Notes under the pieces: generated by a model
Databases searched by the model: none
What the model saw: the letters and a program-made list of their open reading frames with translations, nothing else
Told to the model about the DNA's origin: nothing
Shown here: positions 3,241 to 49,771 of the stretch, piece after piece
Position numbering within the stretch: the stretch's first letter is position 1
Layout of the letters: each line of letters begins with the position of its first letter
Program-made: the position numbers and the translations under genes
NCBI GenBank assembly: GCA_003599755.1
Contig: QZJO01000007.1
Location: 41,221 to 105,220, forward strand
Direction of reading: 5' to 3'
Length of the DNA stretch: 64,000 nucleotides
DNA from: Candidatus Parcubacteria bacterium
GTDB taxonomy: Bacteria; Patescibacteriota; Minisyncoccia; Sungbacterales; SURF-37

Positions 3241-3269
3241 ATTCAGCCAACCACGCGGGTTGGCTAAAT
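3241..3269. repeat. hairpin repeat, copy 1 (attcagccaacc-N5-ggttggctaaat), left edge of the AT-rich island
   Basis: 25/29 identical to copy 2 at 5322-5350; forms an 8-bp stem followed by a T-rich tract. Confidence 0.5.
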
Positions 3270-3303
3270 TTATTTATGCAGTATTCTCAAAATAGTTCGA
3301 ACG

Positions 3304-3370
3304 GTTTTCGCCGCCGCTTTCGGCGCCGAAATGGAAAGCCCCCGCCCGCGCGCGGCTCCGCCGCGCCGAT
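3304..3370. repeat. left 67-bp terminal inverted repeat (GC-rich)
   Basis: Exact reverse complement of 4445-4511 (67/67 by manual alignment); contains the internal palindrome tttcggcgccgaaa. Confidence 0.7.
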
Positions 3371-3469
3371 GACAATTTCAAGTTTTTAATCGAGTTAATC
3401 ATAACTCGATTTATCAAATTTTTCAAATAAGGGATGGTTGAAAAATTTGATGCTTTGGCGGCAAATTCT

Positions 3470-3520
3470 TTTACAAAAAATCAGGCCCACCGTTCGCATT
3501 GCGCTACTAGGTGGGCCCAG
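3470..3520 (-). terminator. rho-independent terminator of the cassette gene
   Basis: Minus-strand hairpin aggcccacc/ggtgggccc followed by a T-run (plus-strand aaaaaa at 3475-3480) just 3' of the stop at 3545. Confidence 0.5.
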
Positions 3521-3544
3521 AACTGCTTCAGTCGCGGCGTGTCA

Positions 3545-4147
3545 CTAGGCTTCGGCGGCCTTGAGCACCGTCGTGGTGTCCCGCTTTCGCAACCGCCGGA
3601 TGACGGCCAGCGTGCGGGTCGCGATCGCGCCGAGGGCACCCGGCCCGCTCGACGCATCCATGGTCAGATGCCGACCGAACGCGACACCGAACGCGGCGGC
3701 GAGAGCGGACGTGATAACGTGACCGATCATCGCCTGTTGGGTCATGGTGACCTTGAAGATGAGGAATGTGAGCGCATCGCCCAGCGTCTTGTGCAGGTAG
3801 TCGTCGGGGCCGTAGTGGCCGAGCGCGAGGGTGTGCACGGCGCTGAAAAACAGAGGAACGATCACAGCGCCGAGACCGCCAGCGATGACGAATGAGCTGA
3901 ACACGCCGACTCCCCATCGGTGTCGGAGCGTGACGGCGAGCGTCACCACTGCCCCGATGCCGATGGCATGGATGAGCCACTCGAGAGCGGTGACCGGCAC
4001 CCTCAGATCGTAGAAGCGGATGATCCAGTTGGCGCCGAAGCTCTCGTTCGGCAGACGGGTGGCGAATGAGGCGTAGAGCGTCGCACCGATCTGCGCGAGC
4101 GCCAAGCACACCAGTGCCGTGATGGCGAACGCGATCTTCTTCTGCAT
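3545..4147 (-). CDS. hypothetical integral membrane protein (200 aa, ~5 TM helices)
   Basis: Strong SD AAAGGAGG 6 nt upstream of the ATG (rare in this window); hydrophobic throughout; own terminator; no family recognised. Confidence 0.55.
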   Translation of the reverse strand: MQKKIAFAITALVCLALAQIGATLYASFATRLPNESFGANWIIRFYDLRVPVTALEWLIHAIGIGAVVTLAVTLRHRWGVGVFSSFVIAGGLGAVIVPLFFSAVHTLALGHYGPDDYLHKTLGDALTFLIFKVTMTQQAMIGHVITSALAAAFGVAFGRHLTMDASSGPGALGAIATRTLAVIRRLRKRDTTTVLKAAEA

Positions 4148-4444
4148 GTGAGCCTCCTTTTGTTCCTGCCTGCCTTTTGGTCAGGGCTTACGGAACGTAT
4201 GTGCCGCACCAGAATCTACGGCAACAAAGAAGAAACTAACCACTTAACACTCTCTTTGTTACCGTAGAATATAGCTTATTTAAAGTGCTAGTTTACTGCT
4301 TAAATAATAGCATATCTATATGAAAAAGTCAAATAGCAGCAAGCACCGCTACTTTGAAAGAAGCTCAATGATTAAAAATTCTTTTTTCGCAAAACCAAAT
4401 ATGGTTCGAGCCGATGTTTTTCTTCCGGTTCTTTGGCAGTTTTT

Positions 4445-4511
4445 ATCGGCGCGGCGGAGCCGCGCGCGGGCGGGGGCTTTCCATTTCGGCGCCGAAAGCG
4501 GCGGCGAAAAC
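4445..4511. repeat. right 67-bp terminal inverted repeat
   Basis: Reverse complement of 3304-3370. Confidence 0.7.
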
Positions 4512-5213
4512 GGGAATATCCACGAGTATGTCTATTACCACTGCACCAAGAAGTCAAAATTGAAATGTCCCGAACCTTGTATTCGCCAAGAAGAATTGGA
4601 TCGCCAGTTATCATCCCTTATTCAAAAATTTTCTTTGAGACCGGATTGGGCGGAAGAAATGCGGGGAATGTTGGAAAAAGAAAAATCGGAATCCGCCCAA
4701 TCCGCAACCGCTTTTGTTCAGGAAGCCGAAACCAAAATCCGCGCCATACAAACGAAGCTCCAGCGACTTCTTGATGGATATTTGGAGCAAGATATTGAGC
4801 GCGAAATTTACCGAACCGAGAAAGCAAAACTACTTTCCGAAAAGAAGTCGCTGGAAGAGCAAATGGCGCGGATTGAACAAAAGCGGACTGGCTGGCTCGA
4901 ACCGATGATGGAATGGATAAAAGAGGCAGAAAATCTGCCTGAAATCGCGCGGGAGAGCAACCTTTTTGCCAAAAAGGTTACCGTCAAAGAAATCTTTGGC
5001 TCGAACCTCGTCTTGGCCAACCGCGAGGCGCGCCTCACCGCGCCGAGCGGAGAGGATTTGTCGGGGGAATCCGTTTGGGCCGCGCTCCGCGCGGCCACCG
5101 AAATGGTCGGTCAAATTGCAAAAAGTCAGATTTTGGTGCGGTCAGCGGGAATCCAGCGCTGCGCGCCTAGAACCCGTCGCGGCACGCGTCTCCGCCTGCG
5201 GCGGATCCGCTAG
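4512..5213 (+). pseudogene. C-terminal fragment (~230 aa) of a large serine recombinase; catalytic, recombinase and most zinc-ribbon domains are missing
   Basis: ..YVYYHCTKKSKLKCPEPCIRQEELDRQL.. (end of recombinase zinc beta-ribbon), then the characteristic coiled-coil LQRLLDGYLEQDIEREIYRTEKAKLLSEKKSLEEQMARIEQ; homology begins exactly at the TIR boundary; the ORF-track N-terminus (MKKSNSS..GAESGGENGN) is read-through of AT-rich spacer and TIR; two stacked terminator hairpins follow (5223-5242, 5254-5275). Confidence 0.55.
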
Positions 5214-5284
5214 CACCGCTCTTTGAAACCTTGCGGTTTCAATTCTTCCACCACGGGGAAACTTTCGTTTCCCCGACCCCTTTC

Positions 5285-5311
5285 CCAGGTTCGATTCCCG
5301 GAACTGACGCA
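5285..5311 (+). repeat. inverted partial duplicate of the tRNA-Gly 3' end (T-arm and acceptor)
   Basis: ccaggttcgattcccggaactgacgca shares ggttcgattcccg and ctgac.gca with the 3' half of tRNA-Gly (5356-5385) but in opposite orientation; lies between the recombinase fragment and the tRNA. Confidence 0.45.
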
Positions 5312-5321
5312 CACAAAATGC

Positions 5322-5350
5322 ATTCAGCCAACCACAAGGGTTGACTGAAT
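5322..5350. repeat. hairpin repeat, copy 2 (attcagccaacc-N5-ggttgactgaat), right edge of the island
   Basis: 25/29 identical to 3241-3269. Confidence 0.5.
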
Positions 5351-5355
5351 GTATG

Positions 5356-5426
5356 TATGCGGTCAGCGGGAATCGAACCCGCGTCTCGTCCTTGGCAAGG
5401 ACGCGTTCTACCACTAAACAATGACC
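5356..5426 (-). tRNA. tRNA-Gly (GCC)
   Basis: Cloverleaf GCGGTCA..TTGCCAA..GGTTCGATTCC..TGACCGC-A; anticodon loop uuGCCaa. Confidence 0.85.
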
Positions 5427-5455
5427 GCTTTAAATCTTCTGCCGGAAACCCGGCC

Positions 5456-5527
5456 GATGCCTGGGGTCAGAATCGAACTGACGACGCCAGCCTCTTCAGG
5501 GCTGCGCTCTACCACTGAGCTACCCAG
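5456..5527 (-). tRNA. tRNA-Phe (GAA)
   Basis: GCCTGGG-TA-GCTCAGTGGTAGAGC..cuGAAga..GTTCGATTC..CCCAGGC-A. Confidence 0.85.
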
Positions 5528-5602
5528 GCAAAAAGCTACTGCGTATGCGCAAGCACTGTAGCAGAATATTTTCCGGTTTTCAACCGTTAATACGCCACTA
5601 TA

Positions 5603-5809: not shown

Positions 5810-5880
5810 TGGACCTAGCGAGAATCGAACTCGCGTCTCAGCAATGCGAATGCCGTGTACTACCACTGTACTATAGGCCC
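5810..5880 (-). tRNA. tRNA-Ala (CGC)
   Basis: GGGCCTA..uuCGCau..GTTCGATTCTCGC..TAGGTCC-A with the G3:U70 Ala identity pair. Confidence 0.8.
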
Positions 5881-8389: not shown

Positions 8390-10849
8390 ATGGCTGATAT
8401 CGGAAAAATTACGCCGCGCGAGATTACCGACGAGATGCGCGAGTCGTACCTCGACTACGCGATGTCGGTGATCGTTGCGCGGGCATTGCCCGACGTCCGG
8501 GACGGCCTCAAGCCCGTGCACCGGCGGATTTTGTACACCATGGATTCCATGGGATTGACCGCGGGCGCAAAATTCCGCAAATCCGCGGCCGTCGTGGGCG
8601 CGTGCCTCGGCCAATACCATCCGCACGGCGACATGGCAGTGTATGACGCGCTCGTACGCCTTGCCCAAGAGTTCGCGTTGCGCTATCCGCTCGTAGACGG
8701 GCAGGGCAACTTCGGATCCGTGGATGGCGATCCGCCCGCGGCCCAGCGCTACACCGAAGTCCGCCTGACCAAAATCGCATCCGAACTGTTGCGCGATATC
8801 GACAAGGAAACCGTCGCCTTTATTCCCAACTATGACGCGACGCGCGAAGAGCCCACGGTACTGCCGGCGGCCATCCCGAACCTGCTTTTGAACGGCGCGC
8901 TCGGCATCGCGGTCGGCATGGCGACCAATATTCCGCCGCATAATTTGAATGAGATCGTGGATGCGCTCGAGCACCTCATCGCGCATCCGAACGCTACGCA
9001 CGACGACCTTATGGAGATCCTCAAGGGCCCGGATTTCCCGACCGGCGGCCTGATTTTTGACGAAAAAAACATCCGCCAGACCTATGCCACGGGCCGCGGC
9101 GCGATTCTCATGCGCGGCGTTGCCGAGATCGCGGAGCGCGAAAAAGCCAAAGGATCGAGCCGCGAAGGAACGCAGATCATCATCACCGAAATTCCGTACC
9201 AGGTGAACAAGGCCGAGCTCATCACGCATATCGCGGAGCTGGTAACCGACAAAAAGCTCGAAGGCATCCGCGACATCCGCGACGAATCGGACAAGGAAGG
9301 ATTGCGCATCGCGATCGACCTCAAAACCGACGCCTATCCGCAAAAGGTACTGAACTTTTTGTACAAATACACCGACCTCGAAAAAAATTTCAACGTGAAC
9401 ATGTTAGCGCTCGTGGACGGCATCCAGCCGCAGGTTTTGTCCTTGAAGCAGATGCTCGAGGAATACCTCAAGCACCGCAAGGACGTGGTCACGCGCCGGA
9501 CGCAGTTCGATCTGGCGCGCACCAAAGAACGCATCCACATTCTTGAAGGACTTTCCAAGGCGCTTGATCATATCGATGCGGTGATCGACACGATCAAAAA
9601 ATCCGCTGACCGCGAAGCGGCGCATGCGAATTTGAAAAAGAAATTCAGTTTTTCCGACATCCAGGCCAACGCCATTCTCGACATGCGCTTGGCGACGCTC
9701 GCGAACCTCGAGCGCCAGAAGATCGACGACGAACTCAAGGAAAAGCAAAAGCTCGCGCGCGAGCTCGAAGCGCTGTTGAAAGATCCGAAAAAGATCTCGG
9801 ACGTCATTGCCAAGGAACTCAACGGCCTCAAAGCCAACTACGGCGACGAGCGGCGGACCAAAGTCATGAAGCACGCGGCGCGCGAGATCGCGACCGAAGA
9901 TATCATCCCCGAAGAAGAAATGATCATCGTGCTCACGCGCGGCGGCTATATCAAGCGTATCCGCCCCGAAGCGTATCGGGTGCAAAAGCGCGGCGGCAAA
10001 GGCATCCAGGGCATCGAAACGAAGGAGGAGGACGTGGTCGAGCATTTCGTGACCGTCAATACGCACGATGATCTTTTGTTTTTCACCTCGTCGGGCAAAG
10101 TATTCCAAACCAAGGCCTACGAGATACCTGAAGGGTCGCGCACCTCCAAGGGTAAAGCCATCGTCAATTTCCTCTCGGTCAAGGCGGACGAGCAGATCAT
10201 GTCGGTCGTGCCGGTGCCCAAACGCACCGCGCCCCGCCCCAGCGGATTTCTCGTACTGGTGACCGAGCGTGGTATGATAAAGAAGGTCACTTCCGACGCG
10301 TTCGCCAATGTGCGCAAAAGCGGCATTGTCGCGATCAATCTCGACAGCGGGGATGCGCTACGCGGCGTTTCACTGACCAGCGGCAAAGATGAGATCCTCC
10401 TGGTAACCGCCGGCGGCCAGGCGATCCGATTCAAGGAAACCGATATCCGGCCTATGGGCCGCGGCGCGCGCGGCGTCAAAGCCATGCGCCTCAGGAAGGA
10501 TGATCTCGTCCGCGGCATGAACGTCATCACTGCGGTCGGCGGCGAAGAACGCGCTGAAATCCTCGTGGTCTTCGATCAGGGATTCACGAAAAAAACGCCG
10601 GTGCGCGAATACAAGCGCCAGAAGCGCGGCGGTTCGGGCATCAAGACCGCAAAGATCACGGCCAAAAACGGCAAAATCGTCAACACGCGCATCATCAAAG
10701 AGGAGATAGAAGTCGTCGCTATTTCGCAAAAAGGCCAAGTCATCCGCACGCCGCTTGCCGACATCCCGACACTGGGCCGCGCGACGCAAGGCGTGCGCAT
10801 CATGCGCCTCAACGAGGGAGATCACATCGCGTCTTTCACGACACTCTAA
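8390..10849 (+). CDS. gyrA: DNA gyrase subunit A
   Basis: ..[30 protein letters not shown].. N-terminal signature; 819 aa with C-terminal beta-pinwheel repeats. Confidence 0.95.
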
Positions 10850-47085: not shown

Positions 47086-48471
47086 ATGAATCGAGAGGAT
47101 ATCTGGAAAAGCGTTCTCGCGGAACTCGAGCTCACCATCTCGCGCGCGAGCTTTATTACATGGTTCCGGGAGACGTCGATCGCCGACATGAACGACGGCG
47201 TGGTTACTGTGTCGGTCCCGAACGGATTCGCCAAAAGCTGGCTGCAGGACAAATACCATAAATCCATCGTCCGGGCGCTCCGCGGACTCGCCACTGACAT
47301 ACGGGAGGTGCAATACGTCGTTGGCGCGATCGATCGCCCAATGCCCGTCCTGCGGCCGAAACCCGTGCGGTTTTTCCCGCGCCCCGACGTATCGGATATC
47401 CCTCAGGATCGCCTGGAACTGCGGGATACCGTGGTAGATCCCGAAAGCGGCCTCAACCCGCGCTATACGTTCGAACATTTCATCGTCGGCTCGTTCAATG
47501 AGCTGGCGCATGCCGCCGCGCAAGCGGTGGTACAGAATCCGGGAGGCGCGGGCTACAATCCGCTCTTTATCTATGGAGGCGTAGGACTTGGCAAAACGCA
47601 CCTCATTCAGGCCATCGGCAATGAATTTCTCAAACAGAACCCCGGCCGCCGGGTCCGCTACATGCCGTCTGAGCGCTACATGGGCGAGGTGGTGGAAGCG
47701 CTGACGTCCAAGACCATGAATGACCTCAAAGAGCGCTACCGCGCCGTGGATGTCCTCATCATCGATGACATCCAATTCATCGCGCGTACGGAAAAAATGC
47801 AGGAAGAATTCTTCCATTTATTCAACTCCCTGTACGAGCGCAACAAACAGATCATCATTTCTTCCGATAAGCCGCCAGCCGCCATTCCGACGCTCGAAAA
47901 CCGCTTGCGTTCGCGTTTTGAGGGCGGACAGCTGGCTGATGTCGGATCCCCGGATATCGAAACGCGCCTCGCGATTCTGCAAACCAAGCTCAAAACGCGC
48001 AATGTAGCGTTCTCAGAAGACGTCATACGGTGCATCGCCGAGACCATCTCGACCAATATCCGTGATCTTGAAGGAGCGCTGAACCGTATTATTCTGCGTT
48101 CGTCGATGTCGAATGCGCCGATTGATGCCGAAGAAGCCAAGCGCATTCTCAACCAAGTGGTCTCGGCTCCGCGGCGATTTACATCGTATAAAAAGATCAT
48201 CCGCGCGGTCGCGGAATTCTATGACGTATCAGAAAAAGACCTTATCAATCGCAGTCGGAGAAAAGAGATCGTAAAACCCCGCCAAATCGCCATGTACCTC
48301 ATGCGGGATGAACTAAAATGTTCGTTTCCGTTCATTGGGGAGAAGCTCGGGAAAAAAGATCATACCACCGCCATCCACGCGTTTAAAAAAATCATGAACG
48401 ACCTTACCGTCGACCCCACGCTTGAGGTAGAGCTGAAATCAGTGCGAGAAAAAATTTATACTAACCCTTGA
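47086..48471 (+). CDS. dnaA: chromosomal replication initiator DnaA
   Basis: Walker A GGVGLGKTHLIQAIGNEF, sensor and box VII regions, C-terminal HTH (..HTTAIHAFKKI); 461 aa. Confidence 0.95.
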   Translation: MNREDIWKSVLAELELTISRASFITWFRETSIADMNDGVVTVSVPNGFAKSWLQDKYHKSIVRALRGLATDIREVQYVVGAIDRPMPVLRPKPVRFFPRPDVSDIPQDRLELRDTVVDPESGLNPRYTFEHFIVGSFNELAHAAAQAVVQNPGGAGYNPLFIYGGVGLGKTHLIQAIGNEFLKQNPGRRVRYMPSERYMGEVVEALTSKTMNDLKERYRAVDVLIIDDIQFIARTEKMQEEFFHLFNSLYERNKQIIISSDKPPAAIPTLENRLRSRFEGGQLADVGSPDIETRLAILQTKLKTRNVAFSEDVIRCIAETISTNIRDLEGALNRIILRSSMSNAPIDAEEAKRILNQVVSAPRRFTSYKKIIRAVAEFYDVSEKDLINRSRRKEIVKPRQIAMYLMRDELKCSFPFIGEKLGKKDHTTAIHAFKKIMNDLTVDPTLEVELKSVREKIYTNP

Positions 48472-48676
48472 GTTACTTGGGGAAAACACGGTGACGGTTG
48501 ATGATATAAATTCTTACAGAAAAATTCTTCTCCTCTCTATCCCCGCAGCCGTCCACACCCTATACCATAGCTGCAACGCTTTAAAACCCGCGCGCCATCT
48601 ATCCAATCCATCGCTATCCCGATATTATTCATCCCTAACAACCACAACAATAAAATTATATACGTACGGTATTGTT
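48472..48676. other. candidate oriC segment II (dnaA-dnaN intergenic)
   Basis: 205-bp AT-rich spacer with several degenerate DnaA boxes (cTATCCAAt, cTATCCCGa, gTCCACA) and an AT-rich tract aacaataaaattatatacgta. Confidence 0.35.
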
Positions 48677-49771
48677 ATGAAATTTACTTCTACGCTTGAA
48701 CACCTCAAAAACGCCGTACAAACCGTTGAGCGATTCAGTGGGCGCCATATCACGTTGCCAATTCTTGCGCATATTCTTATCGTGGTAAAAGAGCGGGGCA
48801 TCGCATTACGCGCGACGAATCTTGAAATGGGGATTGAATATACTATTCCGGGAAAAACACTAAAGGTCGGCGCTACTACCGTGCCCGCCCGATCGTTTTC
48901 ACAAATTCTTCAGTCCTTGCGTGATGATACGGTCACGCTGGAAGCGGAAAAGCAACACCTCGCCATTACTACGCAAAATACGAATGCGACGCTATTCGGC
49001 TTAAATGCCGATGAATTTCCCGTTTTGCCGGCGATTAAAGAGGAAACGAAATTTTCACTCGATACGATATTATTTACCGGCGCTCTGGAACGCATTATTC
49101 CCGCCGCGGCAACGTCTGATCTTAAACCCCAGCTCAACGGCGTATACCTGGCGGTTAAGCCGGGCACAATTACCCTTGCGGCAACCGACTCATTCCGGCT
49201 TGCGGAGCAGACGCTTGCCGTACCTGAGATCAAAGATACGAGCGTGGAATGTATCTTGCCGCTCCGCACCGCGCAGGAACTTTTGCATACGTTGCCCGCG
49301 GAAGGAACGCTCGCGATCGGCATCGGTGAACACCAGATTGTGTTTCGCGCGGGGAACGTAGAAATCGTTTCGCGTCTTATTGATGGCGCGTATCCGCCGT
49401 ATCGCGCTATTATCCCGAAAACCTATGAAACGAATACCGTCATCAAGCGCGACGACCTGATCCAGCGCATCCGGCTTGCCGCTATTTTTTCGAGCCGGCT
49501 GAATGAAGTGAGTTTAGAAGTAGGGCCCCAAGAGATCGCGGTCGCGACCTCGAACAGCGAAACGGGTTCGTCCACCACGCGGCTTGCCGCCAAAGGAAAG
49601 GGGAAGACCGGGTCGGTCCTGTTCAATCATCGGTATCTCGTCGACGGCTTAGCAGCGGCCGGCGGCGAGCACGTCACGCTGAACCTCAACGGTTCGGGCG
49701 GCGCGGCGCTGATCCAAAATCCGAATGACTCATCATTTCTCTATCTCTTGATGCCGATCCGCTCCGCCTAG
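48677..49771 (+). CDS. dnaN: DNA polymerase III beta sliding clamp
   Basis: MKFTSTLEHLKNAVQTVERF.. three-domain clamp, 365 aa from the internal ATG; ORF-track upstream extension is AT-rich spacer. Confidence 0.9.
   Translation: MKFTSTLEHLKNAVQTVERFSGRHITLPILAHILIVVKERGIALRATNLEMGIEYTIPGKTLKVGATTVPARSFSQILQSLRDDTVTLEAEKQHLAITTQNTNATLFGLNADEFPVLPAIKEETKFSLDTILFTGALERIIPAAATSDLKPQLNGVYLAVKPGTITLAATDSFRLAEQTLAVPEIKDTSVECILPLRTAQELLHTLPAEGTLAIGIGEHQIVFRAGNVEIVSRLIDGAYPPYRAIIPKTYETNTVIKRDDLIQRIRLAAIFSSRLNEVSLEVGPQEIAVATSNSETGSSTTRLAAKGKGKTGSVLFNHRYLVDGLAAAGGEHVTLNLNGSGGAALIQNPNDSSFLYLLMPIRSA

Follow-up and report, generated by a model that had tools for sequence, protein, structure and literature searches.

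What occupies the 3′ side of a tRNA-Gly gene in this member of the Candidate Phyla Radiation (CPR), and how many insertions does the locus record? The sequence analysed here (the window) is a 64,000-nucleotide stretch of a Candidatus Parcubacteria contig; the annotated proteins C4552_01555 and C4552_01550 match it exactly. It contains an intact tRNA-Gly(GCC) gene (5358-5428, minus strand; ARAGORN, 71.2 bits against Rfam) which encodes no CCA and is the integration target of the island beside it. A preliminary description of the island placed this gene correctly and interpreted the adjoining segment (3241-5350) as a former phage, conjugative or mobilizable element, carrying a large serine recombinase (LSR) remnant, that had been eroded and then invaded by another element. 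Our analysis suggests, with a probability of about 0.68, that the segment 3277-5357 consists of two dead integrative elements stacked one after the other at the 3′ end of tRNA-Gly(GCC). The earlier interpretation is partly supported: it was right in outline, and wrong or incomplete on the nature of the element, the role of the hairpins and the number of events. It had missed a perfect 17-nt repeat copied from the 3′ end of tRNA-Gly and a 72-nt inverted repeat that encloses a membrane-protein gene, and it did not include a probable second, later insertion of 204 nt.

The translation of positions ~4506-5156 is a genuine LSR C-terminal fragment. It has 628 database homologues, spread over many CPR classes and many of them containing the PF07508 and PF13408 domains; it matches the PHROG 95 integrase family (E = 1.7e-11), and it is 88% identical over 217 amino acids (aa) to residues 301-517 of the full-length LSR at the related locus L007 (tblastn). 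The surviving part of the gene is its 3′ third (4512-5141, plus strand; residues ~301-510 by tblastn), which specifies the second Zn-ribbon half, followed by the coiled coil and C-terminal region. Both of the latter are homologous to those of bona fide LSRs, as the L007 identity and the PHROG 95 match indicate. The Zn-ribbon match (PF13408) is partial, covering profile positions 19-54 of 58 (E = 0.0042; 17.9 bits vs. a cutoff of 25.3), and the first Cys pair falls upstream of the break. Within 4512-5213, the tail of the open reading frame (ORF) at 5157-5213 is read-through and not recombinase. The catalytic N-terminal part is absent, as had been stated: the resolvase domain with its nucleophilic serine (PF00239) is lacking from the window ORF, the Recombinase domain (PF07508), present in the relatives, is lacking from the fragment, and residues 1-300 find no match anywhere in the 64 kb. 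This copy of the recombinase must therefore be catalytically dead.

The intact state of such an element can be read from its relatives. A scan of species-representative genomes yielded at least 539 confirmed relatives among the 600 pattern matches listed, and the family statistics given here are drawn from the best 80 of the 539 confirmed loci. The full-length LSR of L007 has Resolvase (residues 10-154, E = 4.9e-22), Recombinase and Zn_ribbon domains, and its closest solved structures are the A118 and SPbeta integrases; a full-length relative matches the PHROG 95 "integrase" family with E = 1.6e-78. The C-termini of the homologues all end in ..LVxxxG(I/F/V)EP.., which is the antisense of the tRNA T-arm. 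Of the 62 related LSR genes whose flanks are long enough, 57 run up to the 3′ terminus of a tRNA or tmRNA gene in convergent orientation. Ten RNA species are targeted among these loci, and closely related LSRs occupy tRNAs for Gly, Val, Arg and Lys. In one clade the targets are confined to Gly, Cys and Thr tRNAs and the junction core is TGGAG, not TGGTG.

Long inverted repeats are present in 62 of the 80 loci. In most, arms of 114-172 nt (commonest 137 nt) flank the LSR gene, the right arm being made of its last ~45 codons. The two arms of a locus are nearly the same (median identity 99.3%, 22 of 47 pairs perfect) whereas arms from different loci are only 57% identical, indicating that the arms evolve in concert. 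Left of this arm pair, the left arm is always bordered by a conserved motif (..AAATAGGTTCGAGC..GTAAATATA), whose final 5-7 nt are those of the tRNA terminus. A second module, bounded by GC-rich inverted repeats of 86-360 nt, abuts the first in the 17 loci with enough left context. The cargo is varied and includes guaA, ArsP, pyrF, a HaeII-type restriction enzyme next to a probable cytosine methyltransferase, and DUF2207 next to a LemA-like gene. Beyond the outer left boundary comes unique host DNA; in L006 and L016 the boundary is 7-12 nt from the next tRNA of the cluster. Insertions of 3.4-7 kb are thereby defined. These cassettes contain no transfer or virion genes.

In one locus, L046 (4921-7352), the LSR segment is inverted relative to its target, a tmRNA, and the conserved flank motif stands on the far side; it is the only such isomer among ~45 loci and suggests that the segment bounded by the inverted repeats can flip. 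Some genomes have two or more copies of the family, inserted at separate tRNA genes such as Arg(GCG) and Val(CAC); such cases are L007 and L016 (same metagenome-assembled genome), L023 and L052 (same contig), L050 and L077, and L014 and L047.

The window retains only one end of the LSR module. Its nucleotide similarity to the 80 related loci (blastn) is confined to ~4510-5153, from which it follows that it has kept the right arm and the tRNA junction, without the left arm and the first 300 codons. The last 137 nt of the fragment (5005-5141) correspond to the family's right inverted-repeat arm, and the junction profile matches 5094-5140 (E = 1e-7). Neither the profile nor self-comparison of the window found a left LSR arm. 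How these parts were lost is suggested by the break itself. At 4511/4512 the sequence reads GGCGAAAAC|GGGAATATC and shares AAAAC(GG) with the corresponding segment of the intact gene, ..AAAAAACGGCAATATC... The coincidence of this microhomology with the outer edge of a 72-nt repeat arm (see below) is the signature of a single illegitimate deletion, and the missing left LSR arm fits that proposal. Erosion, as had been supposed, is not apparent. The ratio of nonsynonymous to synonymous divergence (dN/dS) between the fragment and intact copies is 0.19-0.24, as against 0.26 between two intact copies, which argues that no point-mutational decay has taken place. Synonymous divergence (dS) from copies in other CPR classes is only ~0.3; together with the unrelaxed dN/dS, this points to recent horizontal spread and a recent truncation. 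A split integrase of the SSV type was considered and rejected, as the break is not at an attachment (att) site and full-length genes exist in the integrated state.

Upstream of the break lies a unit of different make-up. Self-comparison of the window revealed an inverted repeat of 72 nt whose arms, at 3304-3375 (left, GC 0.72) and 4440-4511 (right), are 97% complementary; these are the only copies in the 64 kb, with 0 expected by chance, and the right arm gives way, at its outer edge, to the recombinase gene across the deletion junction. The arms enclose 1064 nt (3376-4439, minus strand) with AT-rich flanks and a single gene for a 200-aa multi-pass membrane protein (3545-4147, minus strand), preceded by its own promoter-like site (4332-4304, minus strand). 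The protein matched no Pfam or PHROG family and has only 4 homologues, 52-64% identical and all on 1-2 kb contigs. The interior at 3377-4341 aligns at 70-90% with an unrelated metagenome contig, L161, where the unit is ~80 nt from a junction site of the family type (E = 3e-5, junction profile) and adjoins a GC-rich module sharing 85-95% identity with those of L048, L050 and L052. The preliminary description had proposed invasion by another element. More likely, this unit is the family's usual second module: GC-rich inverted repeats bound a cargo gene and abut the LSR remnant, although their arms are unrelated in sequence to those of the 80 relatives and the terminal motif is not significant here. 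The position of the membrane-gene unit in the place of the cargo module, and its recurrence beside a family junction in L161, argue that 3277-5153 is one two-module element.

Some smaller features of the unit may be recorded. A GC-rich hairpin (caggcccacc..ggtgggcc) is found just 3′ of the membrane gene, at 3484-3520, and the AT-rich flank near the gene contains a 14-nt perfect palindrome pair, ATCAAATTTTTCAA/TTGAAAAATTTGAT, at 3413-3451. This flank aligns to L161 at ~72% identity. The first 14 positions of L161, CGCTCTTCCGATCT, are an Illumina adapter remnant at the contig start.

On its other side, the recombinase fragment ends as the genes of the family do, in the 3′ end of a convergent tRNA, but only a fragment of that tRNA is present. 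The sequence reads ..CAGATTTTGG|TGCGGTCAGCGGGAATC, the latter part being 17 nt of tRNA-Gly (5137-5153, minus strand) from T-loop position 57 to the discriminator. These 17 nt form a perfect direct repeat with 5358-5374 in the intact gene, 221 nt away. The core copy is preceded, on the 3′ side of the tRNA strand, by a CCA supplied by the element. The block from T-loop to discriminator is what Williams reportedly identified in 2002 as the classical identity block of tyrosine-integrase islands. A direct repeat identical to a tRNA 3′ segment therefore stands at both ends of a 204-nt segment (5154-5357). Between the core copies and ahead of the terminator discussed below is a 168-nt filler (5154-5321; fold z = -3.6), made up of a GC-rich stem (5155-5220), two stable hairpins (5223-5242 and 5254-5275) and, on the plus strand, an inverted degenerate copy of the tRNA-Gly T-arm and acceptor (5285-5311; a 13-nt exact match plus CTGAC..GCA). 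This last feature had been noted correctly. The two hairpins had been called stacked terminators; they are stable on folding, but the terminator scan does not call them. The filler has no similarity to any of the 161 loci fetched, and the 204-nt segment as a whole contains no tyrosine integrase, no credible ORF and no homology to anything fetched. Probably, 5154-5321 is the remnant of a second, later integration. A comparable junction was seen in L026 (1830-1885), where the recombinase likewise meets only ~25 nt from the 3′ end of a Leu/Ser-like tRNA before unrelated AT-rich DNA begins; its resemblance to the window shows that displaced or truncated target fragments recur.

The hairpins that bracket the island have a different meaning from the one first given to them. 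A 29-nt hairpin repeat had been described, with its copies as candidate att-site remnants. The repeat is real (2 copies in the 64 kb vs. 0 expected by chance); however, it extends over 42 nt, with 83% identity between 3241-3282 and 5322-5363 (self-comparison). The copy next to the tRNA, hairpin B with its spacer (5322-5357, minus strand; -19.4 kcal/mol, z = -5.1), has a 13-bp stem followed by CATTTTGTGT on the minus strand; it is called by the terminator scan and now serves the tRNA-Ala/Phe/Gly cluster. The distal copy, hairpin A with its spacer (3241-3276, minus strand; -16.9 kcal/mol, z = -4.05), is an older version of the same terminator-like structure and probably represents the original downstream flank of tRNA-Gly. 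As the 204-nt piece carries hairpin B, called as the terminator of the tRNA operon, hairpin A would be the operon's original terminator, stranded at the island's far end. The repeats are thus duplicated terminator and spacer sequences bracketing the island, and not crossover cores. The preliminary description had allowed that they might prove a common terminator motif: they are terminator-like, but these two copies are the only ones in the 64 kb.

What resembles att repeats at the locus is, instead, the 17-nt core of the tRNA and, at the left end, a short TG(C)NGT. The latter belongs to the segment 3277-3303 (minus strand), delimited by alignment to the tRNA 3′ end and by the extent of the direct repeat, which reads TGCAGT (compare TGCGGT in tRNA-Gly) and then ..GTTCGAAC... 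It might derive by decay from the 3′ end of tRNA-Gly or be the family's tRNA-mimicking terminal motif; the assignment is weak, as the family junction profile does not detect the segment. Further candidate remnants of the left arm or of the tRNA-mimic motif, at 3286-3303, 4204-4217, 4396-4420 (4403-4420) and 5312-5320, are matches at chance level and were not relied on; the last is better read as the T-tail of terminator B.

These observations can be combined into the following sequence of events. An intact element begins, on the plus strand, next to the host flank with a 5-nt tRNA-like core (TGGTG or TGGAG). Then come a cargo module enclosed by long, GC-rich inverted repeats, a second core in inverted orientation, the LSR module within its near-identical 114-172-nt inverted repeats, a last core and the convergent tRNA gene. 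The LSR inserts the element exactly at the tRNA 3′ terminus and accepts many tRNA species; the element end would supply or overlap the CCA. The older and larger element of the window (3277-5153) would be a two-module member of this CPR-wide cassette family. One illegitimate deletion at the AAAAC microhomology would have removed ~1.15 kb, comprising the outer part of the cargo arm, the left LSR arm and LSR codons 1-300, and fused the membrane-protein cargo module to the last third of the recombinase. Later, a second element would have entered tRNA-Gly at the classical T-loop position, duplicating 17 nt and bringing its own terminator copy; it would since have been reduced to 204 nt, with the older element displaced outward from the tRNA. 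The homology, the repeats, the junctions and the family architecture are observed, whereas this order of events and the nature of the 204-nt piece are inferred. Nothing at the locus is now self-mobile, and the tRNA gene is intact, with hairpin B as its terminator. The crossover position and the role of the long inverted repeats, in inverting or exchanging modules, are likewise conjectural; they are suggested by the layout, by the one isomer seen in opposite orientation and by the fact that the arms evolve in concert.

Several points weigh against this reconstruction. In sequence, the 72-nt arms do not resemble the cargo arms found in the 80 relatives, and nothing accounts for the 98 nt (4342-4439) that separate the conserved interior of the cargo module from its right arm. 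The family junction profile, built from 40-odd junctions, finds the right arm only and detects neither left-arm nor tRNA-mimic motifs in the window. The 204-nt piece has no integrase, the 17-nt core being what marks it as the remnant of an element. An empty tRNA-Gly site, sought by using the gene for ribosomal protein S1 as anchor, was not found, the best relatives being 74% identical in S1. Finally, the structure is known from an assembled contig alone and may include a misassembly.

The reading closest to the preliminary description has a single phage, integrative and conjugative element (ICE) or integrative and mobilizable element (IME), bracketed by the 29-nt hairpins as att remnants, decaying at the locus and then being invaded by an unrelated membrane-gene element. 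We consider it quite unlikely. The LSR remnant beside a tRNA, the direct repeat around the island and the foreign GC of its pieces (0.45 for the LSR fragment vs. 0.59 for the window) are what such an element would leave, and an LSR-driven element, no longer autonomous, did integrate at the tRNA-Gly 3′ end. A phage or ICE origin, on the other hand, finds no backing in the relatives: scans of IMG/VR (2.9 million viral contigs) with the protein profile and the repeat arm yielded no relative of the LSR, and the intact cassettes of 3.4-7 kb are devoid of phage and conjugation genes. Moreover, the hairpins are terminator copies outside the tRNA, the true tRNA-core repeat is the 17-mer, which splits the island in two, and cargo modules bounded by inverted repeats are regular in the family. 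The same unit could also be accounted for if 3304-4511 were an independent, small transposable or non-autonomous element that inserted into the LSR gene, with a flanking deletion then taking the upstream part. Terminal inverted repeats that are perfect (97% over the 72 nt by self-comparison), the presence of the interior in another context with different flanks in L161, and the confinement of homologues to 1-2 kb contigs, as expected of repeats that break assemblies, all agree with this idea. It nonetheless appears unlikely, for there is no transposase and no visible target-site duplication, the left flank is not LSR sequence, so that an extra deletion is required anyway, and L161 puts the same cargo beside a junction site of this very LSR family.

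The tandem pile of two elements also has to be set against explanations in which the structure is either functional or not real. The truncated ORF (4320-5213) might be a retained, expressed protein made of half a Zn ribbon and a coiled coil, for instance a decoy that blocks integration at tRNA genes. The ORF is intact, a promoter-like site is found at 4279-4308, dN/dS shows no relaxation, and many database entries are ~235 aa long. Set against this are the missing first Zn-ribbon cysteine pair, the N-terminal 64 residues, which are a translated repeat arm, and a recent truncation, which would account for the unchanged dN/dS equally well. Furthermore, at least one of these entries, the 235-aa P0002, proved to be a short gene call within an ORF of full length. 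We regard a retained function as very unlikely. The idea that the 235-aa homologues mark a recurrent truncation was dropped on the same ground. The start of this public "hypothetical protein" is a Met inside the Zn ribbon of the uninterrupted 567-aa recombinase ORF of L006 (5503-7206), and many of the 230-280-aa database entries of the LSR family may be short gene calls rather than real fragments (P0002 being the one entry checked). Lastly, the nested repeats could be an artefact of metagenome assembly, given that the family breaks assemblies and that many related contigs end at about k-5 nt past the left arm. The region is nevertheless 3-5 kb inside a 117-kb contig, and equivalent architectures occur mid-contig in assemblies from different assemblers, which makes an artefact highly improbable. 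The contigs in question (L019, L020, L023, L025, L050, L055, L064, L070 and others) stop ~50 or ~136 nt past the left arm; several of those stopping at ~136 nt carry MEGAHIT k141 names, and the offset is read as the assembly k-mer minus ~5. The sequence beyond these stops appears to be multi-copy or variable, and the family appears to be a systematic cause of contig breaks in CPR assemblies.

How does this family relate to known systems? Its identity to phage and plasmid LSRs is at most 29%. Its full-length members share the Resolvase, Recombinase, Zn-ribbon and coiled-coil architecture of the phage-type large serine integrases (A118/LI, SPbeta SprA, phiC31, Bxb1) but target many tRNA 3′ ends and not one attB; in addition, the last 137 nt of the LSR gene form one arm of an almost perfect inverted repeat, and the ORF continues into the tRNA. 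Nor are these prophages: virion and lysis genes and relatives in viral collections were not found, and the cargo of the relatives consists of a restriction enzyme, metabolic genes and membrane proteins. Staphylococcal cassette chromosome (SCC)/Ccr cassettes, such as SCCmec and the Enterococcus cassette chromosome, are moved by LSRs, lack transfer genes, insert at a conserved gene's 3′ end and can be arranged in composite or tandem arrays (PMC6222049). The present elements likewise are cargo cassettes moved by an LSR, and CcrB is their best NCBIfam match; however, its score of 119 bits falls far short of the 900-bit cutoff, insertion is at a tRNA and not at rlmH, there is a single LSR, and the two modules lie in long inverted repeats. 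A Ccr recombinase above the NCBIfam cutoff and integration at rlmH were thus both lacking.

An analogue by description only is provided by the tycheposons of Prochlorococcus, small cargo-carrying integrative elements at tRNA genes of streamlined genomes. Tycheposons reportedly pile up in tandem, forming islands. Most of them use tyrosine recombinases and carry replication modules, unlike the family described here, and long modules bounded by inverted repeats are not reported for them; 27 of 937 use LSRs (bioRxiv 10.1101/2020.12.28.424599). The window also resembles classical tRNA islands and cis-mobilizable elements (CIMEs), the integrase-less, att-flanked remnants left by accretion, in that a 17-nt repeat from T-loop to discriminator flanks a short segment without integrase and the older element is displaced outward from the tRNA; it differs in that the piece is only 204 nt long and no tyrosine recombinase is present. 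In the yeast 2-micron plasmid with its FLP recombinase, and in flip-flop systems, the recombinase gene likewise lies in a segment bounded by long, concertedly evolving inverted repeats with recombination sites, and the inverted isomer L046 adds to the likeness, which is one of layout only. The present recombinase is a serine and not a tyrosine enzyme, the element is integrated and not a plasmid, and it has no known amplification role.

In literature searches we found no description of a CPR family of LSR cassettes at tRNA ends, and the family is apparently undescribed. The window copy is a dead relic, ordinary and of little importance by itself, which exposes a very abundant family of elements. 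Its spread between distant CPR classes is apparent from the dS of ~0.3 between element copies, as compared with the 30-50% difference between the S1 proteins of the hosts. The elements carry restriction, resistance and metabolic genes and enter at the tails of many tRNAs. All this bears on gene exchange in genome-reduced, episymbiotic bacteria; the family also explains many fragmentary "hypothetical protein" and "zinc-ribbon" annotations, along with contig breaks, in CPR assemblies, and serine integrases with a generic tRNA-end target would be of interest to builders of integration tools. As a tentative generalization, which we put forward as possible without favouring it, these might be CPR-wide "tRNA-tail cassettes". 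Their LSRs would recognise the generic tRNA 3′ end (T-arm, acceptor and CCA) and not one attB. Their two modules, each within long inverted repeats whose arms evolve in concert, and with the attachment region repeated internally in inverted orientation, could be flipped or exchanged by the recombinase, with cargo stacked beside tRNA genes. If so, they would serve as a platform for shuffling cassettes in organisms that have few other means of exchanging genes, and might be a source of integrases whose landing sites are near-universal.

The island borders a tRNA cluster. The tRNA-Phe (5456-5530) and tRNA-Ala (5810-5880) genes, both on the minus strand and identified by tRNA search, complete the three tRNAs that Rfam detects in the window, in which it finds nothing else. 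The gene for ribosomal protein S1 lies upstream of them. The order S1-tRNA-Ala-tRNA-Phe-tRNA-Gly is also present in a relative, L085, whose cluster has no LSR; this relative is too distant for the boundaries to be defined from it. A look-up for exact copies of the window proteins found no strain variants. In L085, a LAGLIDADG-like ORF (9537-10244; motifs ..LIASDGN.. and ..LFDGDGTF..) stands between the tRNA-Ala and tRNA-Phe genes of the S1-linked cluster.

With respect to base composition, the segment 3241-5350 had been described as much more AT-rich than the rest of the window. Its GC content of 0.537, compared with 0.593 for the window, ranks 20th lowest among 310 stretches of that length and bears this out in part; the segment is in fact a mosaic of pieces at 0.39-0.45 and others at 0.65-0.72. 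The other markedly low-GC patch of the window, at 47086-49771 (GC ~0.44 at 48100-49100), spans dnaA (47086-48471) to dnaN (48491-49771) and is therefore probably the chromosomal replication origin and not a mobile element.

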